Of a DNA stretch of 37,482 nucleotides, positions 9,147-24,162 are shown one piece after another (the stretch's first letter is position 1; each line of letters opens with the position of its first letter). The notes under the pieces were generated by a model that did no database searches, was not told the origin of the DNA, and saw only the letters and a program-made list of their open reading frames with translations. The stretch lies in the IMG/VR virus record IMGVR_UViG_2565956717_000009, positions 1 through 37,482 of that record; one strand, given 5' to 3'. Position numbers and translations under genes: made by a program. The DNA is from a virus (Duplodnaviria > Heunggongvirae > Uroviricota > Caudoviricetes).

Positions 9147-9847
9147 CAGTCAATCAGCCCATGTAATCTAAGTGCCGTTTCAAGCGCCAGAATACGCTGC
9201 CGCGCCTGCTGCAAACCTGTAGCGAGGGCTGCGACTTCGGATTGTGTGTACGTAGTGCCGACTGTGTATGACTGGTTAGCGTTGAATGAGCCAAGAAGAG
9301 GTGTACCTGTGGCTGCAGTCCATCCGGTATTTCTTGCTCCAACAACCTGAATTCCATCAACTGAATATGATGTTTTTACATCCAGCGGTGACTCAAGAGA
9401 CTGCAATTCGGTTACGGTTTTCGATACGTAATCACTCTTAATGCCAGAGACATCGTTTTCTACCTCATCCAGTCTTTGGTCAACAGTGACCAGATGCGCC
9501 TGAATATCGATAACCTCATCCAGCAAGTAATCAACATCGCTACGCAGTACGACTATCTTCCCTTCGGCAGTTGTTAACCTGACCTCAAGTAGATTTATCG
9601 CTTTTGTGTTTGCGGTGATTCTTGCGTCGTGATCAGCCAGTTCGACATCCTGTTCATCGTTTTTTACCTGGGCATCGTAAGCGCCCTGACCAGCCTGATT
9701 TGCCTTCCCGGCAATTGCGCCGACATCAGCCCCCTGATTAATGACATACAGCAGGTAAGACTGGCTGAATATATTGCGTGGAAGGATTGATGTATCGAGT
9801 CGTGTAGCCTGGATGATTACCGGCACATTGAGATTCGAATCAGCCAT
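9146..9847 (-). CDS. Tail needle protein, P22 gp26-like
   Basis: [25 protein letters not shown]... and C-terminus ...[45 protein letters not shown] match recalled gp26; start at internal ATG 9847 with GGAGG 7 nt upstream. Confidence 0.85.
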
Positions 9848-10385
9848 TAACATGCCTCCACGATTTACCAGACTGGATATTGTGAATCACCGTCTGACTG
9901 ACACAGTATTTTTTAGCAAGCTCTCTTTGATTAACTCCCTTTGATTTCTTTATTTCTATTACTTGCTCATATGATAGCTTTGAAATTGGATTATTTTCTC
10001 CTTTTAAAGCCGGAAACTTCACCCTGCCTTGAGATGAGCAATGCTTCATATTCTCCTTTTGAGTACACCACTCTAAATTAGAAGCATTATTATTTTTTCG
10101 GTTGTTATCTATGTGATTTATGAACGGCTTGCCTTCTGGATTGGGGACGAAAGCAAGAGCGACAAGCCTATGCACAAGCCATTTTACTTTAACTCCATCA
10201 ACACTAAGTGGCAAATATAGATAACCTTTATTATTCTCGTGTTGTTTTAGCCACCGCCCCTTTCTGAGTTGCGTGCTGCCATGCGCAGCTTTAACAACAC
10301 GTGAGTGAGAATATACTCGCCCATCCTCTGTTACGGCATATAAACCTTCATATCCAGGAATATCTTTTGCGTTTTCACTCAACAT
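9840..10385 (-). CDS. HNH homing endonuclease (NUMOD4-like N-motif + HNH + C-terminal HTH)
   Basis: [18 protein letters not shown] (NUMOD4-like), [12 protein letters not shown]...[24 protein letters not shown] (HNH), C-terminal [22 protein letters not shown]; strong AAGGAG RBS; A+T-rich. Confidence 0.85.
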
Positions 10386-18926: not shown

Positions 18927-19460
18927 ATGAGTTTAGAAAAATTACTAATCAAAAACAGAAAGTGCGGTTCATGCTCTGTGTGCTGCACTTCGCTACGAAT
19001 TGAACAGCCAACGTTAAAAAAGTTGGCTGACATCCCATGCCAGCACCTTAAACATCAGGGAGGATGTGCAATTTATGATGAACGCCCTTCTGTTTGCCGC
19101 ACTTGGTATTGCGGATGGCGAATTCTGGATATAGGACCAGAGATGCGTCCTGATCGGAGTGGAGTTCTAATCCGTTATGATGGATCATCACTCTGCTTTC
19201 AACCCGTAGACAAAAACCGCGTATCTGCTTTGATCGAACCAGAGCCTCTGCGAATTTTGGGTGGCCTGATAGATCAAGGTATGAAAGTGGAAATATCGGT
19301 TCCAACAAAGGAAGGGTATTGCTCAGCCAATATTAATGTCACTGAGCATATGTCAGAGGTTGTAAAAAGCAGAGAGTATGTAAAAATGCGTTCGGCTCTT
19401 TTGGCGCTCATTCAATTCGCATCACGAGCAAAGACAGATCCAGTAGAACCGCTGGAATGA
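18927..19460 (+). CDS. YkgJ/UPF0153-family Cys-cluster protein (CxxCxxCC putative Zn/Fe-chelating domain)
   Basis: 177 aa from ATG 18927 with GGGAGA RBS at 6-nt spacing; KCGSCSVCC ... IPCQHL ... GGCAIYDERPSVCRTWYC matches the recalled PF03692 signature; opposite strand to the late operon. Confidence 0.7.
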   Translation: MSLEKLLIKNRKCGSCSVCCTSLRIEQPTLKKLADIPCQHLKHQGGCAIYDERPSVCRTWYCGWRILDIGPEMRPDRSGVLIRYDGSSLCFQPVDKNRVSALIEPEPLRILGGLIDQGMKVEISVPTKEGYCSANINVTEHMSEVVKSREYVKMRSALLALIQFASRAKTDPVEPLE

Positions 19461-19470
19461 TTATTCAGGT

Positions 19471-19492
19471 CGGGTTTAACACCCGGCTTTTT
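19471..19492 (+). terminator. Rho-independent terminator after the YkgJ-like gene
   Basis: cgggt-ttaac-acccg followed by gcttttt, 11 nt after the stop codon. Confidence 0.55.
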
Positions 19493-19735
19493 GAAATGGT
19501 ACTCATTGCATCGCTTAATTTTCTTTAAATGAGAAACGTCCTCTTTCTTAACTGAAGACATTAATTCTTTATCAGTTCGAACATTCATTTTTTTCCATTG
19601 CATGATCTTCGCTAATTTATAATTTGCAGTTCTCCTGCAACGATTTGTTATGTGATAGGATATCTCTCTTCGTTTGGCGGTCCATTACTTCAATATCGTG
19701 ATCATTAAGGTATAGGCTTTGTAATGCCTACATGG

Positions 19736-20215
19736 TTAAATGATTTGCCAGTCTTCAGCCATCAGGTCGCCAATGGATGGAGCCCATGTAGCAAGGCGGT
19801 TCTGTGAGTTTTTCAATACAAGCGTGTCATTGAAAGTTGGCTCGCCAACATATTCGCCAAAGCCATAACCCAACGCAGACGCTAATTTTTCTCCTTTCAC
19901 GAGATAAACAAACTGATCTTTCCCATTCCATCCTGCCCGCTGCAAACTTTTGCCCTGTTTTAACGCTTCCATGGCAAGGCCGAAACTTAGCCCTGATACC
20001 GGACGATAAGCCTTTTCGAATACTTCTTTTGGACTCCAGCTAACGTAGCCATCAAAGCGATCGGTGTTAGGTTTTCCGCCATCCAGATATTCAACCAGAT
20101 AGCCTTCGTCCTCGCCGTTTTCTCCGGCAGGAAGCTGCCAGCCACGAAAATCGTTATATGCCTGTCTCGTCATCGGAAAGGCGTTAATCAGTTTTACGCC
20201 AATATGCTGGGTCAT
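19736..20215 (-). CDS. DUF2829-like protein (Tad2-family candidate); in-frame upstream extension to 20338 possible
   Basis: C-terminal half contains AMEALKQGKSLQRAGWNGKDQFVYLV, matching the recalled DUF2829 signature; ATG at 20215 chosen over 20338 because the N-terminal 41 aa look non-protein-like. Confidence 0.5.
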   Translation of the reverse strand: MTQHIGVKLINAFPMTRQAYNDFRGWQLPAGENGEDEGYLVEYLDGGKPNTDRFDGYVSWSPKEVFEKAYRPVSGLSFGLAMEALKQGKSLQRAGWNGKDQFVYLVKGEKLASALGYGFGEYVGEPTFNDTLVLKNSQNRLATWAPSIGDLMAEDWQII

Positions 20216-20437
20216 AAAATTACCTATGGAGTTGGGAATAAAAAAACCCCGCGAATGCGAGGCTAAATCCTGGTGTTTGTGATGACTGGCTCTTATCTCA
20301 ACGCAGCCCCTTACCGCGCGCCAGATGCTCAATATCAAGCATCAGCAATGAGATGTTTAATCTGGATTCACTCCAGAAGTGATCACCACCCTGTCTACAG
20401 AGCCAGATGTGAAGGATGATGAGTAAAATTATCGTTA

Positions 20438-20875
20438 TCATCGAAGGCATTGCGCCCTGATGTACTCCTGCAGGTAGTTAACCTGCGCGGTTATTCTGTC
20501 GATTCCACTTCGTAGACGGTAATAATTGAGTTCAGCATCTGCTGTAAGTCTTGGGCTTTCTCCATCGCCCATGCTGCTGGCTCCGGTCGTTGACTTTGCA
20601 CAGGTGGCAGCGACTTGCAGGCGCTTACGACCAGCAGAAATATCAGCACGGAGACTTTCGATAGTCGCGTTAGCATCAGCAAGCTCCTTTGTATATCTGG
20701 CATCGAGTTCTGCTACATCACGTTGACGCTTCTGCATATCAGCGATTGTGGATGTGGCCTTATCGCGCTGCTCTTTGTAGGTAATGGCGTTATCACGGTA
20801 ATGATTAACAGCCCATGACAGACAGACGATGATGCAGATAACCAGAGCGGAGATAATCGCGGTTAACCTGCTCAT
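20438..20875 (-). CDS. Rz: Rz i-spanin
   Basis: [34 protein letters not shown] matches recalled lambda Rz; ATGA overlap with endolysin stop. Confidence 0.85.
20491..20676 (-). CDS. Rz1: Rz1 o-spanin lipoprotein, embedded in Rz in the +1 frame
   Basis: Signal peptide with lipobox (LVVSAC) followed by a Pro-rich segment, wholly inside Rz. Confidence 0.7.
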
Positions 20876-21375
20876 TGCTGCCCCCACAAACAGACTTCAC
20901 GCTCAATATCGCGACGGGTCATCAGCCCTTTCCATTGCTTACCGCCAGCGTATGTCCAGCGACGCAGCTGGTCACATGCGCCCTTGATATCGCCCTGGTT
21001 GATTTTGCGAAGAAGCGTCGATGTTCTGAAATTGCCAGCCCCCACGTTGTAGACGAACGAGTAAAGAGCGCCGCGCGTTGTTTCCGGTATATCGACTTTG
21101 ATGTACGGGTTAATTTGTCTGGCGACCGTGGCAAGGTCTTTGTTCAGGAGAGCTTTGCATTCTGCTTCGGTATACGTTTTACCGAGCATGATGTCTTTTC
21201 CGGTGTGTCCGTGACATACAGTCCATACACCAACAATATCTTTGTATGGTATGTAGCTGACACCTTCCAGACCATCGTTACCACTTGGTCCAGTGATTAA
21301 CACAGATGCTATAGCAATAGCCCCGCCACTTATCGCCGCTATTACGCTATTTCGTAGTGCCGGTGACATTGCCAT
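20872..21375 (-). CDS. SAR endolysin (T4-lysozyme-like, signal-anchor-release)
   Basis: N-terminal Gly/Ala-rich SAR helix ([20 protein letters not shown]) then lysozyme motif; very close to recalled phage 21 R. Confidence 0.9.
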
Positions 21376-21550
21376 TCAATCTGTCCTCGCGCTCTTTGCG
21401 CTTGTAGTACCAGTTGATGCCAAATGTGCCGACAGTACAAAGAATACCAATGATGACAGCCCAGTCATTCAGGGAGAGAATGCCACCCATCGCAGTCAGT
21501 CCTCCGAAGCTGTAACTGAACCATTCTCTGATTTTGTCCATACGGTACAT
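21347..21550 (-). CDS. Class II holin (pinholin-like) with dual-start motif
   Basis: 67 aa, two TMDs, MYRMDKI start (Met1/Met4 with Arg between), charged C-terminus; precedes SAR endolysin. Confidence 0.75.
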
Positions 21551-21556
21551 GCTCTA

Positions 21557-21572
21557 CCCCTTCATTGAGGGG
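21557..21572 (-). promoter_or_regulatory. sdi-like stem-loop over the holin translation initiation region
   Basis: cccct-tcattg-agggg hairpin immediately upstream of the holin start codons, in flanking sequence that matches the recalled lambda S-upstream leader. Confidence 0.35.
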
Positions 21573-21850
21573 ATTTGCTCTATTTAATTAGGAATAAGGT
21601 CGATTACTGATAGAACAAATCCAGGCTACTGTGTTTAGTAATCAGATTTGTTCGTGACCGATATGCACGGGCAAAACGGCAGGAGGTTGTTAGCGCAACC
21701 TCATGCCACCCGCTTTCACGAAGCCAGCCATTGCGCTGGTTTTCTTTTATGCAAAGCACACCGCACCGTAGCCACAGCGGATAAGGTGATTATTTTTGTC
21801 TGTCTGGTATTTGGTTTGATGTGCTTTCAGAAAGGCCGTGCTTAAAACGC

Positions 21851-21880
21851 AAAAAGCCCCGAGCTATTAACTCAGGGCTT
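21851..21880 (-). terminator. tR'-like terminator shortly downstream of pR'
   Basis: On the minus strand AAAGCCCTGAG-TTAATAG-CTCGGGGCT followed by TTTTT. Confidence 0.5.
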
Positions 21881-21914
21881 TATTTAACGAGTGCATTTAT
21901 CCATCGTTGAGTCA

Positions 21915-21943
21915 AATTTACCCAACTTTATTCAATAAGTCAA
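21915..21943 (-). promoter_or_regulatory. Late promoter pR' with Q-utilisation region (lambda-type)
   Basis: Minus strand reads TTGACT-17nt-TAAATT...GACTCAACGATGG, matching recalled lambda pR'/qut; directly downstream of Q. Confidence 0.7.
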
Positions 21944-21985
21944 TATTATGCCGTTAATATGTTGCCATCCGTGGCAATCATGCTG

Positions 21986-22609
21986 CTAACGTGTGACAGC
22001 ATTCAAAATGTTGTCTGCGATTGACTCTTCTTTGTGGCATTGCACCACCAGAGCGTCATACAGCGGCTTAACAGTGCGTGACCAGGTGGGTTGAGTAAGG
22101 TTTGGGATTAGCATCGTTACAGCGCGATATGCGGCGCTTGCTGGCATCCTTGAATAACCGACGCCTTTGCATCTTCCGCACTCTTTCTCAACAACTCTCC
22201 CCCACTGCTCCGTTTTGGCTATATCAACCGCACGGCCTGTACCGTGGCAATCTCTGCATCTTGCGCCCGGCGTCGCGGCACTACGGCAATAATCCGCATA
22301 AGCGAATGTTGCGAGCACTTGCAGTACCTTTGTCTTAGTATTTCCTTCAAGCTTTGCCACACCACGGTATTTCCCCGATACCTTGTGTGCAAATTGCATC
22401 AGATAGTTGATAGCCTTTTGTTTGTCGTTCTGGCTGAGTTCATGTTTACCACAGAATGCAGCCATTCCGAATCCGGCTTGTGATTGCGCCATCCCCATAG
22501 CAGCCATCACATCAGTACCGGAAAGAGAGTCAGAAGCCGTAGCCCGTGGTGAGTCGCTCATCATCGGGCTTTTTGGCGAATGAAATTTAGCTACACTTTC
22601 GAGTCTCAT
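21986..22609 (-). CDS. Q: Late antiterminator Q (lambda-type)
   Basis: 207 aa; MRLESVAKFHSPKSPMMSDSPRATASDSLSGTD... matches recalled lambda Q. Confidence 0.9.
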   Translation of the reverse strand: MRLESVAKFHSPKSPMMSDSPRATASDSLSGTDVMAAMGMAQSQAGFGMAAFCGKHELSQNDKQKAINYLMQFAHKVSGKYRGVAKLEGNTKTKVLQVLATFAYADYCRSAATPGARCRDCHGTGRAVDIAKTEQWGRVVEKECGRCKGVGYSRMPASAAYRAVTMLIPNLTQPTWSRTVKPLYDALVVQCHKEESIADNILNAVTR

Positions 22610-22794
22610 GGTCTACCCCTCTTGCCCTGTTTGACCATCAGGACGCCGTTAACTATTACGTGACGCTCACCTTTGCTGTCTCGGTTGTACTTGAGCACTG
22701 TTCCTCTTGCACAGGAAAGCATCCTCGCCACCTCGGTCTGATTGCCTCGTGTCTGGATAAGAAGCTCTGGTATCGTTTGAATTGTGGCGTTCAT
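22606..22794 (-). CDS. ninH: NinH-like protein
   Basis: 62 aa; ...GNQTEVARMLSCARGTVLKY... resembles lambda NinH; 4-nt overlaps with neighbours. Confidence 0.75.
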   Translation of the reverse strand: MNATIQTIPELLIQTRGNQTEVARMLSCARGTVLKYNRDSKGERHVIVNGVLMVKQGKRGRP

Positions 22795-23153
22795 GCGTTC
22801 TCCAGTTCGGTGATTTTTATTCCAAGCCGTCCGCCTGGTACTTTCACACCACGAATTACGCTAATGTCATCGAATTGCTCGTCGTCTTCCGCAAATCCGG
22901 CGTGGATAAGGGAATCGAGTAAACCTTTCAGGATGTTATCGAGGTCGCGGCGGCGGTAGTCTGGAACGTCTGCGATGACTTTGATGCGGAGTCGTGATTT
23001 GGTGAAAATATCTAACTTGAGTTGGTGGATGATTTGCTGAACGTCTTTTCGGTATTTCTGGCCTTTATGGCTGATGTAGTATTGGCTTCCCCGTCTTCGC
23101 CAGTAGGTATTCACCGACGGCGGGTATGGAAGCACAAACTGATATTCGTTCAT
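22791..23153 (-). CDS. rusA: RusA-family Holliday junction resolvase
   Basis: 120 aa; PPSVNTYWRR...DVPDYRRRDLDNILKGLLDSL...GGRLGIKITEL typical RusA. Confidence 0.85.
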   Translation of the reverse strand: MNEYQFVLPYPPSVNTYWRRRGSQYYISHKGQKYRKDVQQIIHQLKLDIFTKSRLRIKVIADVPDYRRRDLDNILKGLLDSLIHAGFAEDDEQFDDISVIRGVKVPGGRLGIKITELENA

Positions 23154-23440
23154 GACTTAATCTTCCCCTCCTTCAGCAGTATCGCCTGCGTCCTGATTAC
23201 GCCTTCGAGGTGGTAAAGTCTGGCGTCTTTGTTGTCGAGATTATGGGTGCGTCGGTCGATTTCATCGTGACACGCGCTACAAGCCCATGCGCCGATCAGG
23301 TCGTCAGGTTTCATTCCCGTTCCGCAAATTCCAGCCATCCGGTAATGTGCCAGAACTGTAGTTTCAGGATTACCATTGCATACGCCGTAAATACGTACCT
23401 GGCATTCTCTGCCGCGCGCTTCTTTGCGTAGGTTAGCCAT
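23150..23440 (-). CDS. YbcO-like (DUF1364) putative nuclease
   Basis: 96 aa, Cys-rich; position between Rha-like and RusA as in DLP12-type nin regions (recollection). Confidence 0.6.
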   Translation of the reverse strand: MANLRKEARGRECQVRIYGVCNGNPETTVLAHYRMAGICGTGMKPDDLIGAWACSACHDEIDRRTHNLDNKDARLYHLEGVIRTQAILLKEGKIKS

Positions 23441-24162
23441 TAAGCAGCCTCCCCTGTTACTTTCAGCATTCCGTTATCGAGCAGCTTTCTGGTCAGCCAC
23501 TGTTGACCACGCCCGGTGATTTTTGTGGTGAACGATATCTGTATTCCGTGATTTGTGTTGACCGCTGTTTCTTTCACTGTGAAATAGCCGCGATCCATAT
23601 ATTCCTGCATTGGCACATTTCGCCGGGAACCTGAAGCAATAAGGATTTTGTGATCGCGCATCCACGCAAACAGTTTGTTTGGACCAATTCCAACAACCTT
23701 TGCAAAGTTTCCAATCAAAATTCCGCTGGCCTCGCCAACGCGATCGGCAAACTCAACTTTAGGTGCGGCAATTGCGAGCTGGTTTTCCAGTTGCATTTTC
23801 TGCTCAGCAAGATCAGCAGCAAGGCGCAACGCTTCCGGTAGCGTTTTGGGGATATTAACCGCAGCTTCTTCAAGCTCTCGCCAGCGGTCAACAAGGCGAG
23901 CGGTGAATTCCGGCGACAACTGGGCAACAACAACAATACTATCTCGCTTACCTTGTTCGCCTTCGAAGACGTAATGCTCGTACTGAACATTGAACCCTAA
24001 GTTATTGATTCTTTCGGAAACCTCAATTTGAGGAAGCCGGATAACACCATTTTTAGCCAGCGTTTCGATGGTACGTTTCACATTGTCATGACGCTTACCC
24101 ACCAACTCAGCGATTTCAATGCTTGTCATTTTGATGGCATTGCCATTTATTAACTCATTCAT
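23440..24162 (-). CDS. Rha-family regulatory protein with antirepressor-like (KilAC) C-terminal domain
   Basis: N-terminal MTSIEIAELVGKRHDNVKRTIETL; C-terminal FADRVGEASGILIGNFAKVVGIGPNKLFAWMRDHKIL. Confidence 0.7.
   Translation of the reverse strand: MNELINGNAIKMTSIEIAELVGKRHDNVKRTIETLAKNGVIRLPQIEVSERINNLGFNVQYEHYVFEGEQGKRDSIVVVAQLSPEFTARLVDRWRELEEAAVNIPKTLPEALRLAADLAEQKMQLENQLAIAAPKVEFADRVGEASGILIGNFAKVVGIGPNKLFAWMRDHKILIASGSRRNVPMQEYMDRGYFTVKETAVNTNHGIQISFTTKITGRGQQWLTRKLLDNGMLKVTGEAA

Follow-up and report, generated by a model that had tools for sequence, protein, structure and literature searches.

Control of holin synthesis from two adjacent start codons is reportedly established for lambda S, P22 13 and phage 21 S21. 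In its record, phage 21 is annotated as encoding an antipinholin (S21-71), a pinholin (S21-68) and the SAR endolysin R21, for which structures have been solved in both the membrane-tethered and the released states. In experiments, the hol product of Haemophilus phage HP1, prototype of the PF16080 holin family (TC 1.E.7), acted as a pinholin alongside a SAR endolysin (PMC7312051), and among the spanins the phages PS34, Emek and P22 have been placed together in the HK97 o-spanin family (PMC6139136).

Here we compare with these systems the lysis region of a 37,482-nucleotide stretch of DNA, hereafter the window. The cassette and its control features all lie on the minus strand, within or next to positions 20438-21575, and follow one another in the order Q, pR', tR', a leader with a hairpin, holin, endolysin, and Rz with embedded Rz1; the holin, endolysin, Rz/Rz1, Q, pR' and hairpin named in the original prediction are all present. 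The cassette is of an ordinary, already catalogued type, belongs to a P22-like E. coli prophage and is of low interest as such. More specifically, it is most likely the lysis cassette among the late genes of a P22-like prophage integrated at an E. coli tRNA-Arg gene, a mosaic that databases already contain as the PS34/PS119/ST104/Emek type.

Late control and the lambda-type leader

The late antiterminator Q (207 aa; 21986-22609, minus strand) matches lambda Q at 205 of 207 residues (99% aa) and P22 gp23 at 201 of 207, and scores 192 bits against PF03589. A promoter scan places the pR' and qut region at 21901-21943 on the same strand, with the hexamers TTGACT-17-TAAATT at 21943-21915; the AACGAT pause element is conserved relative to lambda and P22, and alignment with these two phages reveals between the hexamers a single substitution relative to lambda, which is common to P22. 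Further downstream, the intrinsic terminator tR' (21853-21881, minus strand), made of a 13-bp stem and a T run after it, aligns to the P22 t-late terminator at a place where lambda has ~240 extra nt, and the short 6S-like RNA of the window is shorter than that of lambda. The Q orthologue, promoter hexamers, pause element and downstream terminator together assign the region to the lambda-type Q/pR'/qut systems. The lambda-type Q/pR' control proposed earlier holds for Q and pR', which match lambda, but not for tR' and the distal leader, which are P22-type. Given the near identity of the two Q proteins and the conserved promoter elements, Q would be expected to modify RNA polymerase at pR'/qut, and the modified polymerase, no longer stopped by tR' or by the leader hairpins, to transcribe the lysis genes (holin, endolysin, Rz/Rz1) and the virion genes. 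No Rfam family matched anywhere in 19000-23500 at E<=1.

The holin is preceded by a lambda-type proximal late leader of ~170-175 nt (21551-21723, minus strand), which its match to lambda and its recurrence mark as a separate mosaic unit. Window positions 21723-21555 are 96.5% identical in nucleotide sequence to lambda 45015-45181, and homology therefore reaches to 5 nt short of the holin ATG. The same unit is present in 185 phage records. It has been retained ahead of no fewer than two holin types that are unrelated to each other, namely the class I holins of lambda and P22 and two HP1-family class II variants, and likewise downstream of a pair of unrelated Q systems, one being lambda Q and the other a Q21-type Q with tRNAs; the second arrangement is that of SPN9CC.

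The fold of the whole leader has a z-score of -3.3. It includes a terminator-like inverted repeat (21678-21707, minus strand), GGCAUGAGGUU...AACCUCCUGCC followed by GUUUUG, whose helix was recovered by RNAalifold with three compensatory pairs across eight leaders. Immediately upstream of the sdi-like hairpin described below, the leader also holds conserved alternative pairings: the invariant segment GGAUUUGUUC (21613-21622) finds its complement both upstream (21645-21653) and downstream (21571-21580), the latter copy overlapping the 5' arm of the hairpin, and can pair with either. In phage mEp235 a natural deletion has removed the first two of these three segments. Partition-function probabilities for the competing helices flip among homologues, from 0.01 to 0.92, and do not indicate the fold in use; we found no description in the literature of these pairings beside the start-site hairpin. 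It is a speculative and rather doubtful idea that the leader is a portable translational-control module in which the GGAUUUGUUC structural switch could tune the antiholin:holin ratio. This leader, conserved ahead of many lambdoid holin genes, is the one point that could reward further study.

The lysis proteins and their lineages

The holin gene (21347-21550, minus strand) encodes a 67-residue class II protein that begins MYRMDKI, with in-frame ATGs at 21550 (Met1) and 21541 (Met4), as had been foreseen. It falls in the HP1 holin family (PF16080, Phage_holin_2_3), with 75.1 bits against a cutoff of 28.8 over model positions 1-49 of 56, and in phrog_20, a holin family (E=3.5e-25). Assignment to the phage 21 S holin family (PF04971, Phage_holin_2_1) was rejected at 19.5 bits against a cutoff of 26. 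A BLASTP comparison of the holin with S21 was not significant (E=0.27), and hhalign aligned the two at 96.4% (E=1.2e-9, 28% identity over 58 columns); by these comparisons, S21 is only a remote, colinear homologue. The protein has two uncharged stretches, residues 10-28 (mean Kyte-Doolittle hydropathy 0.78, 9 of 19 residues G/A/S/T) and 30-49 (mean 1.34), followed by a charged C terminus, a layout resembling those of S21 and HP1 Hol. A hydropathy scan firmly calls only the second stretch as transmembrane, and a single-sequence AF2 model places helices at residues 4-21 and 28-64 with low confidence (pLDDT 69.5).

The endolysin (20872-21375, minus strand), which overlaps the holin by 29 nt, is an R21/RrrD-type GH24 lysozyme of 167 residues, or 165 if it starts at Met3 (PF00959, 155 bits; PDB matches 3HDE, 3HDF and 4ZPU at E=1e-94 to 1e-107). 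It is identical to R21 at 155 of 167 residues (93% aa), with 86% nucleotide identity starting 5 nt into the gene. Its SAR segment, residues 11-27 (9 of 17 G/A/S/T), is nearly identical to that of R21, with R8 upstream, and the catalytic triad E37-D46-T52 (E-8x-D-5x-T), read off the translation, is kept. The R21 homology, the N-terminal segment and the triad all speak for the predicted SAR endolysin, which probably escapes cleavage by signal peptidase and is released on depolarization. The endolysin of SPN9CC is identical at 158 of 167 residues, and a review attributes to Lim et al. 2014 the finding that the activity of the SPN9CC enzyme is due to its N-terminal SAR region (PMC8532960).

Rz (20438-20875, minus strand; PF03245, 127 bits), whose start overlaps the endolysin stop (ATGA), is a P22 gp15-type i-spanin of 145 residues from the ATG, 130 of which are shared with gp15. 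The o-spanin lipoprotein Rz1 (20491-20676, minus strand; 61 aa; PF06085, 67 bits) lies entirely inside it in the +1 frame, with a VSAC lipobox (Cys20), a Shine-Dalgarno sequence AAGGAG 7 nt upstream, and 54 of 61 residues in common with P22 Rz1; the anticipated embedding of Rz1 in Rz is thus borne out. With 90% and 89% aa identity to P22 versus 57% and 33% to phage 21, Rz and Rz1 form an embedded two-component spanin of the P22/HK97 type.

All five proteins have Pfam and PHROG matches; NCBIfam offers the holin and Rz1 no model of their own and matches the other proteins only below threshold. Percentage identities to the lambda, P22 and phage 21 proteins, combined with the DNA comparison, yield a mosaic map in which, as judged from sequence, Q and the proximal leader are of lambda lineage, tR' and the spanins of P22 lineage, the endolysin of phage 21 lineage and the holin of the HP1 family. 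The label of a phage-21-type cassette thus fits the endolysin only, the holin being of the HP1 family and Rz/Rz1 of the P22/HK97 type. In RefSeq the same prophage is annotated with lysozyme RrrD, a lysis protein and a holin named only as "phage holin family protein"; Rz1 is absent from that annotation. The importance of the cassette is small beyond correct annotation; it offers a clean case of lambdoid mosaicism at gene-boundary resolution, and a reminder that a class II dual-start holin beside an R21-like lysozyme should not be taken as S21.

Dual start, start-site hairpin and mode of lysis

Directly 5' of the first holin start, alignment and folding identify the sdi-like hairpin CCCCUCAAUGAAGGGG (21557-21572, minus strand; stem CCCCU/AGGGG), the 3' arm of which is the G-rich Shine-Dalgarno sequence of Met1, 6 nt upstream of the ATG. 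It aligns exactly to the position of the lambda hairpin CCCCUUAUUGGGGG, where the P22 hairpin also lies, in agreement with the stem-loop previously noted at the lambda sdi site; its placement, its Shine-Dalgarno-bearing 3' arm and its conserved position are those of an sdi-type hairpin. The hairpin sits in sequence continuous with that of lambda as far as the ATG. Its significance derives from comparison with other leaders and not from its own stability: when the last 30 nt were shuffled by mononucleotide, 12 of 1000 permutations reached its ΔG of -10.0 kcal/mol, a value only moderately unusual when taken alone, and within 71 nt of context its z-score is just -1.08. In a 205-nt context its predicted probability is 0.29 (0.17-0.54 in homologues), low because a competing helix can form.

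A hairpin of -8.5 to -12 kcal/mol extending into the Shine-Dalgarno region is found in all nine dual-start holin leaders examined; weaker hairpins, at -1.5 to -5.4 kcal/mol, precede three single-start family members. Among the lambda, window, P22, L023 and L091 types, the stems at this position differ by compensatory changes (CCCC/GGGG, CCCCU/AGGGG, CCUCAC/GUGAGG and CCUCC/GGAGG). These variants were compared by per-sequence folds rather than by pair counts on the MAFFT alignment, because loop-length differences push the 3' arms out of register there; for the same reason, RNAalifold on the eight leaders recovered the upstream helices and not the sdi hairpin. The coincidence of a Shine-Dalgarno-covering hairpin with a dual start in nine lambdoid and enterobacterial holin leaders thus supports conserved start-site control, a long-known theme. 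The earlier suggestion of dual-start control conserved across a module swap accordingly gains comparative support and restates what lambda S, P22 13 and S21 had established; full-text searches (sdi/dual-start; PS34/PS119) found nothing on the regulation of this cassette. The hairpin might have arrived with the holin instead of with the leader, since a CCCC/GGGG stem also precedes a Yersinia holin relative whose leader is unrelated; the lambda-continuous sequence around the window's hairpin speaks for the leader.

At the protein level, the M1-Y-R-M4 arrangement gives the long form alone an extra positive charge, Arg3, as is characteristic of S21-type dual starts. By analogy with lambda S107/S105, P22 13 and S21 71/68, translation of the holin mRNA would begin at both Met1 and Met4, the 5-bp G-C-rich hairpin that holds the Met1 Shine-Dalgarno sequence in its 3' arm limiting initiation at Met1; the predicted products are a 67-aa antiholin with the additional Arg3 and a 64-aa holin. 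At a set time the holin, with its weakly hydrophobic segment 10-28 and strongly hydrophobic segment 30-49, would most likely form small depolarizing holes, as do S21 and HP1 Hol. The endolysin, to judge from its likeness to R21, would until then be exported by Sec and tethered in an inactive state via its N-terminal SAR segment, to be freed and activated by depolarization, and once the murein is broken down the Rz/Rz1 spanin complex would disrupt the outer membrane, as proposed from P22 and lambda.

It could be argued that only one of the two starts is used, the Met1/Met4 pair being incidental and the hairpin an inherited element that sets the overall translation level or acts as a recombination linker. 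HP1 hol, APSE-7 and mEp515 family members indeed have single starts, the hairpin could be a passive passenger because it lies inside sequence 96% identical to lambda, and its predicted occupancy in the long context is low. However, Met pairs of the form M-x-(x)-M with an intervening Lys or Arg recur in other holins: besides MYRM in the window, they include MKNM in the L023-type and Enterobacter MII001 holins, MTRM in HK225, MTKM in Kp4882-1, MKM in Yersinia 210.17, MRM in Morganella and Providencia, and MKSM in S21. Several of these holins sit behind unrelated leaders, each with its own differently sequenced Shine-Dalgarno-covering hairpin, and we therefore regard use of a single start as improbable and favor two.

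How the holin permeabilizes the membrane can be weighed along similar lines. SAR endolysins can also work with large-hole holins and do not require pinholins, so that the 67-aa protein might be a canonical large-hole class II holin and the SAR endolysin be freed when large holes collapse the membrane potential. In mean Kyte-Doolittle hydropathy its first segment exceeds the S21 counterpart (0.78 vs. 0.52), and the L023-type and APSE-7 relatives precede lysozymes without a SAR segment or other N-terminal hydrophobic segment; family membership alone is therefore no proof of a pinhole mechanism. Against this, both of those cassettes have an additional holin-like gene whose product might act for the soluble enzyme, and six of seven newly sampled relatives, a small set hand-picked from the BLAST list, precede an endolysin whose N terminus includes an uncharged, G/A-rich segment, a feature also of the HK225 and HP1 endolysins. 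Both studied relatives, S21 by record annotation and HP1 Hol by experiment, behave as pinholins, which makes a pinholin the reasonable inference and a large-hole holin unlikely, if slightly less so than use of a single start. Far less probable than either is that the cassette is a decaying remnant of a cryptic prophage that has lost its function: nothing specific points that way beyond its location in a chromosome-borne prophage, while its ORFs are intact with conserved overlaps, plaque-forming phages (Emek, SPN9CC and ST104 among them) carry a holin 100% and an endolysin 95% identical to its own, and the prophage as a whole has a complete P22-like gene set.

Occurrence and comparison with known systems

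The holin agrees at every residue with gp13 of PS119, ST104, Emek and SPN9CC, is likewise 100% identical in SE1 and at least 99% identical in 31 phage records, and leader and holin occur together in 82 of 5426 complete E. coli genomes. At the DNA level, the stretch from Q to Rz is 93-97% identical to phiKp_30, Emek, VSe13 and PS34 over 90-94% of the 2.4-kb query. The closest counterparts are the gp13-gp19-gp15 cassettes of the Salmonella phages PS34, PS119, ST104, SE1, Emek and VSe13 and that of Klebsiella phage phiKp_30, which have the same gene order and types, holins 98.5-100% identical to that of the window, and the same lambda-type leader and hairpin. They differ in that Emek and PS34 contain an extra ~86 bp ("orf30") between endolysin and Rz, which the window is without, and in that the window lies in an E. 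coli prophage and has different sequence downstream of Rz.

With lambda S and P22 13 the window shares the leader, the hairpin position, a Shine-Dalgarno sequence in the 3' arm 6 nt from Met1, and a basic residue between the two Met codons; the hairpin loop is 6 nt, compared with 5-6 nt in lambda and P22, and the window stem has an added U-A pair. The proteins behind these leaders are nonetheless different, lambda S being a three-TMD class I holin of 105/107 aa and the window holin an unrelated class II protein with 17% identity to it.

Phage 21 resembles the window in its endolysin, including the SAR segment and triad, in the size class, two-segment layout and M-x-x-M-D-K-I dual start of its holin, with 12 identical nucleotides (ATGGACAAAATC), and in a Shine-Dalgarno-covering hairpin upstream of the holin. 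Its Q (14% identical), pR' and leader, which contains tRNA genes, are however unrelated, its holin is remote by BLASTP and the PF04971 cutoff, and its Rz and Rz1 are divergent. HP1, finally, has a holin of the same Pfam family followed by an overlapping SAR endolysin, but its hol product is 78 aa long and ~25% identical to the window holin, is made without a dual start or a strong upstream hairpin, and belongs to a P2-like myovirus with other late-gene control.

The lysis locus and its neighbors

The lysis region is carried on the minus strand of a prophage of P22-like type; over its first 24.5 kb the window matches, at 99.6% identity, a prophage that adjoins a tRNA-Arg gene and intS in E. coli SCU-124 and A42. 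All features named in the original prediction are present, and all on the minus strand: Q (21986-22609), the pR' promoter (TTGACT-17-TAAATT, 21943-21915), a leader-terminal hairpin, CCCCUCAAUGAAGGGG (21572-21557), a 67-aa holin ORF with an MYRMDKI start (21550-21347), a 167-aa endolysin ORF (21375-20872) overlapping the latter by 29 nt, Rz (20875-20438), which shares an ATGA overlap with the endolysin gene, and Rz1 (20676-20491), which is nested within Rz in the +1 frame and has its own AAGGAG Shine-Dalgarno sequence and a VSAC lipobox. An intrinsic terminator (21881-21853, minus strand) follows the promoter. Each of the five proteins scores well over threshold against the Pfam and PHROG families expected of it, and we are highly confident that the identity and general mode of action of the cassette are as described.

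Overlapping the end of Rz by 13 nt is a 50-aa ORF (20298-20450, minus strand) whose product starts with a hydrophobic stretch; RefSeq lists it as hypothetical in E. coli SCU-124, Pfam gives no match, and it is absent in Emek and phiKp_30, where similarity stops at the Rz stop. Just downstream of the cassette, past a terminator-like hairpin (20264-20245), is the gene for a 160-aa protein (19736-20218, minus strand) with a C-terminal Tad2-like/DUF2829 domain (PF11195, 77 bits; phrog_872), possibly an anti-Thoeris gene in the position of a moron, or accessory prophage gene. A YkgJ/CxxCxxCC cysteine-cluster protein, encoded on the opposite strand (18927-19460, plus) in the interval from the small terminase gene to the lysis region, is probably a moron, and an HNH homing-endonuclease-like gene (NUMOD4, HNH_3 and HTH; 9840-10385, minus strand) is inserted amid the P22-like virion genes.

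Endolysin, holin and probable mode of action

The designation of the cassette as phage-21-type holds for the endolysin but neither for the holin, which falls into PF16080 and not PF04971, nor for the P22-type Rz/Rz1 pair, such that the first interpretation is right in outline and wrong in extending the label to the whole. The endolysin is 93% identical to R21, the SAR endolysin of phage 21, with matches to 3HDE, 3HDF and RrrD 4ZPU at E about 1e-106; it retains the E-8x-D-5x-T triad (E37, D46, T52), and its SAR segment (residues 11-27), the membrane tether expected from the outset, is nearly the same as that of R21. Given this identity, a cleavable signal peptide would be very unlikely. The SPN9CC endolysin, 158/167 identical and encoded behind a 100% identical holin, is described in a review (PMC8532960), citing Lim et al. 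2014, as dependent on its N-terminal SAR region. The window endolysin begins M-A-M (21360-21375, minus strand), with two possible starts and a GAGGA Shine-Dalgarno sequence 8 nt ahead of Met1; Met1 (167 aa) is used in the PS34 and Emek records and Met3 (165 aa, like R21) in RefSeq.

The holin scores 75 bits against PF16080, the HP1 holin family, and 19.5 bits against PF04971 (P21 holin S), under that family's cut-off of 26, and BLASTP gives no significant match to S21, the phage 21 holin (E=0.27). When seven HP1-family members are combined in a profile, S21 aligns with it colinearly at 96.4% probability, and the window holin and S21 have M-x-x-M-D-K-I in common, with 12 nucleotides identical at the second start. 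Taking the null BLASTP result, the profile alignment and the common start motif together, we therefore regard S21 as a remote relative of the same superfamily but a different family.

Two transmembrane domains (TMDs) are expected of a class II holin, and the holin does contain two uncharged stretches, residues 10-28 (mean hydropathy 0.78, half Gly/Ala/Ser/Thr) and 30-49 (mean hydropathy 1.34), with one Asp between them and a highly charged tail after, in the same layout as in S21 and HP1 Hol. A plain hydropathy scan calls firmly the second stretch alone, both here and in S21, and a single-sequence AlphaFold model, of low confidence, has helices at 4-21 and 28-64. Hydropathy, layout and model thus point neither to an absence of two TMDs nor cleanly to their presence.

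By analogy with its relatives, the window holin would probably act by a pinhole mechanism. HP1 Hol, whose gene lacks a dual start, has been characterized as a pinholin working with a SAR endolysin (PMC7312051); 6/7 newly sampled relatives are found upstream of SAR-type endolysins, and the HK225 and HP1 endolysins also feature a SAR-type N-terminal segment. Speaking against it, the L023-type relative (78 aa, MKNM start), which falls between S21 and the HP1 family, is followed by a lysozyme without a hydrophobic N-terminus and a further two-TMD ORF, and in APSE-7 the genes after the single-start member encode a holin of the lambda type and a soluble lysozyme.

The late leader and the dual start

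The stem-loop proposed at the place of lambda sdi, which covers the Shine-Dalgarno sequence of the dual-start holin S, aligns exactly with lambda CCCCUUAUUGGGGG and P22 CCUCACGGUCGUGAGG. In lambda S, P22 13 and S21, a hairpin of this kind sets the ratio of the two products. The window hairpin is only modestly unusual (12/1000 shuffles reach its stability; z = -1.08 in 71 nt), and the case for its putative coupling to the dual start is carried by the comparative pattern rather than by this hairpin alone. A scan of the viral collection with a 14-mer of the shared leader recovered 14 distinct variants with five stem types at the hairpin position (CCCC/GGGG, CCCCU/AGGGG, CCUCAC/GUGAGG, CCUCAC/GUGGGG and CCUCC/GGAGG), all 14 of which fold (-6.5 to -10.2 kcal/mol) and precede a dual start (MKM, MYRM, MKKM or MKNM). 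Superfamily holins with unrelated leaders, namely those of phage 21, HK225, Klebsiella Kp4882-1, Yersinia 210.17 and Morganella IME1369, likewise have a G-C-rich hairpin that extends into the Shine-Dalgarno region, combined with an M-x-(x)-M start in which Lys or Arg lies between the Mets. In this small, hand-picked sample, the single-start members HP1, APSE-7 and mEp515 have weak structures, at -1.5 to -5.4 versus -8.5 to -12.0 kcal/mol in the dual-start leaders.

The whole 186-nt leader folds better than 200/200 shuffles (z = -3.3). Three conserved segments occupy 21571-21653 (minus strand): GAACAAAUC (21645-21653), its complement GGAUUUGUUC (21613-21622) and GAGCAAAUCC (21571-21580). RNAalifold, run on eight leader variants, pairs GGAUUUGUUC with GA[G/A]CAAAUCC (21571-21580) in a 10-bp helix, the arms of which do not vary between lambda-, P22- and L023-type leaders and the ~30-nt loop of which is wholly different among them; the 3' arm of the helix extends over the first two C in the 5' arm of sdi, and pairing takes these from the sdi hairpin. 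The middle segment alternatively pairs with the upstream copy in a local hairpin kept, with differing details, in lambda- and P22-type leaders, and the predicted occupancies of these competing helices flip between homologues. The alternative pairings may be a switch that influences which start is chosen, an element of transcript stability or a linker for recombination. A terminator-like inverted repeat inside the late leader (21678-21707, minus strand), GGCAUGAGGUU...AACCUCCUGCC followed by GUUUUG, is likewise recovered by RNAalifold, shows three compensatory pairs among the eight leaders and is common to lambda (around 45035-45065). The viable lambdoid isolate mEp235 (L143, about 440-502) carries a natural ~70-nt late-leader deletion that removes the first two conserved segments and retains the sdi hairpin.

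Mosaic composition and relation to known phages

Comparison with lambda, P22 and phage 21 resolves the region into a mosaic. Q is identical to lambda Q at 205/207 positions and to P22 gp23 at 201/207, and unrelated to Q21 (14%); together with a promoter and qut stretch common to lambda and P22, whose one base change between the hexamers is that of P22, this supports the proposed lambda-type Q/pR' control. The terminator and following ~130 nt are P22-type, with ~240 additional nt at the same place in lambda, and 21723-21555 is 96.5% identical to lambda 45015-45181, ending 5 nt short of the holin start codon. The leader-holin junction falls at the start codon or within the loop of the hairpin: all sequence up to and including the 5' arm is that of lambda, and the 3' arm, spacer and ATG are lambda-like too (GGGGUAGAGCAUG vs. 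GGGGUAAGACAUG). Neither lambda nor P22 nor phage 21 has a counterpart of the holin ORF. Similarity to phage 21 DNA (86%) begins 5 nt into the endolysin gene and extends to the first third of Rz, and the remainder of Rz, like the whole of Rz1, is P22-type (95% nt; 90% and 89% aa), whereas the phage 21 Rz and Rz1 proteins are only 57% and 33% identical. Kongari et al. (PMC6139136) assign the PS34, Emek and P22 o-spanins to the HK97 family, and the lambda and phage 21 o-spanins to a different one.

In SPN9CC (L137, 319-1300), the same ~170-nt leader and 100% identical holin stand behind a Q21-type antiterminator and tRNA-Asn/tRNA-Thr genes that are 87% identical to phage 21. The proximal leader is therefore a separate unit of the mosaic, and this phage shows the leader-holin unit moving independently of Q. 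In HK225 and Klebsiella phages, behind a different Q and a different leader, the C-terminal half of the holin matches that of the window holin (aa 25-63; HK225 74%), and the start of the overlapping SAR endolysin (MAMSP.L.NSVIAAI) matches too; hence the holin 3' part and endolysin start travel together. Another lysis cassette lies behind the same late leader at L023 (minus strand of the locus, oriented 234-1574) and L138, ordered as a 78-aa MKNM dual-start class II holin, a lysozyme without SAR, a 76-aa two-TMD ORF and spanin genes that partly overlap rather than being embedded.

Proteins 100% identical to the holin occur in PS119, ST104, SE1, Emek, SPN9CC and others, and 31 phage records have one that is at least 99% identical; the whole Q-to-Rz arrangement recurs at 93-97% identity in phiKp_30, Emek, VSe13 and PS34, and the leader and window holin occur together in 82/5426 complete E. 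coli genomes. Public phage and E. coli records already contain the cassette many times over, and its components come from families that have been studied. Among six P22-like phages of Salmonella, Casjens and colleagues (PMC2629481) distinguished three holin types without homology to one another and three types of lysin; they also described a lambda-like Q and qut in epsilon34.
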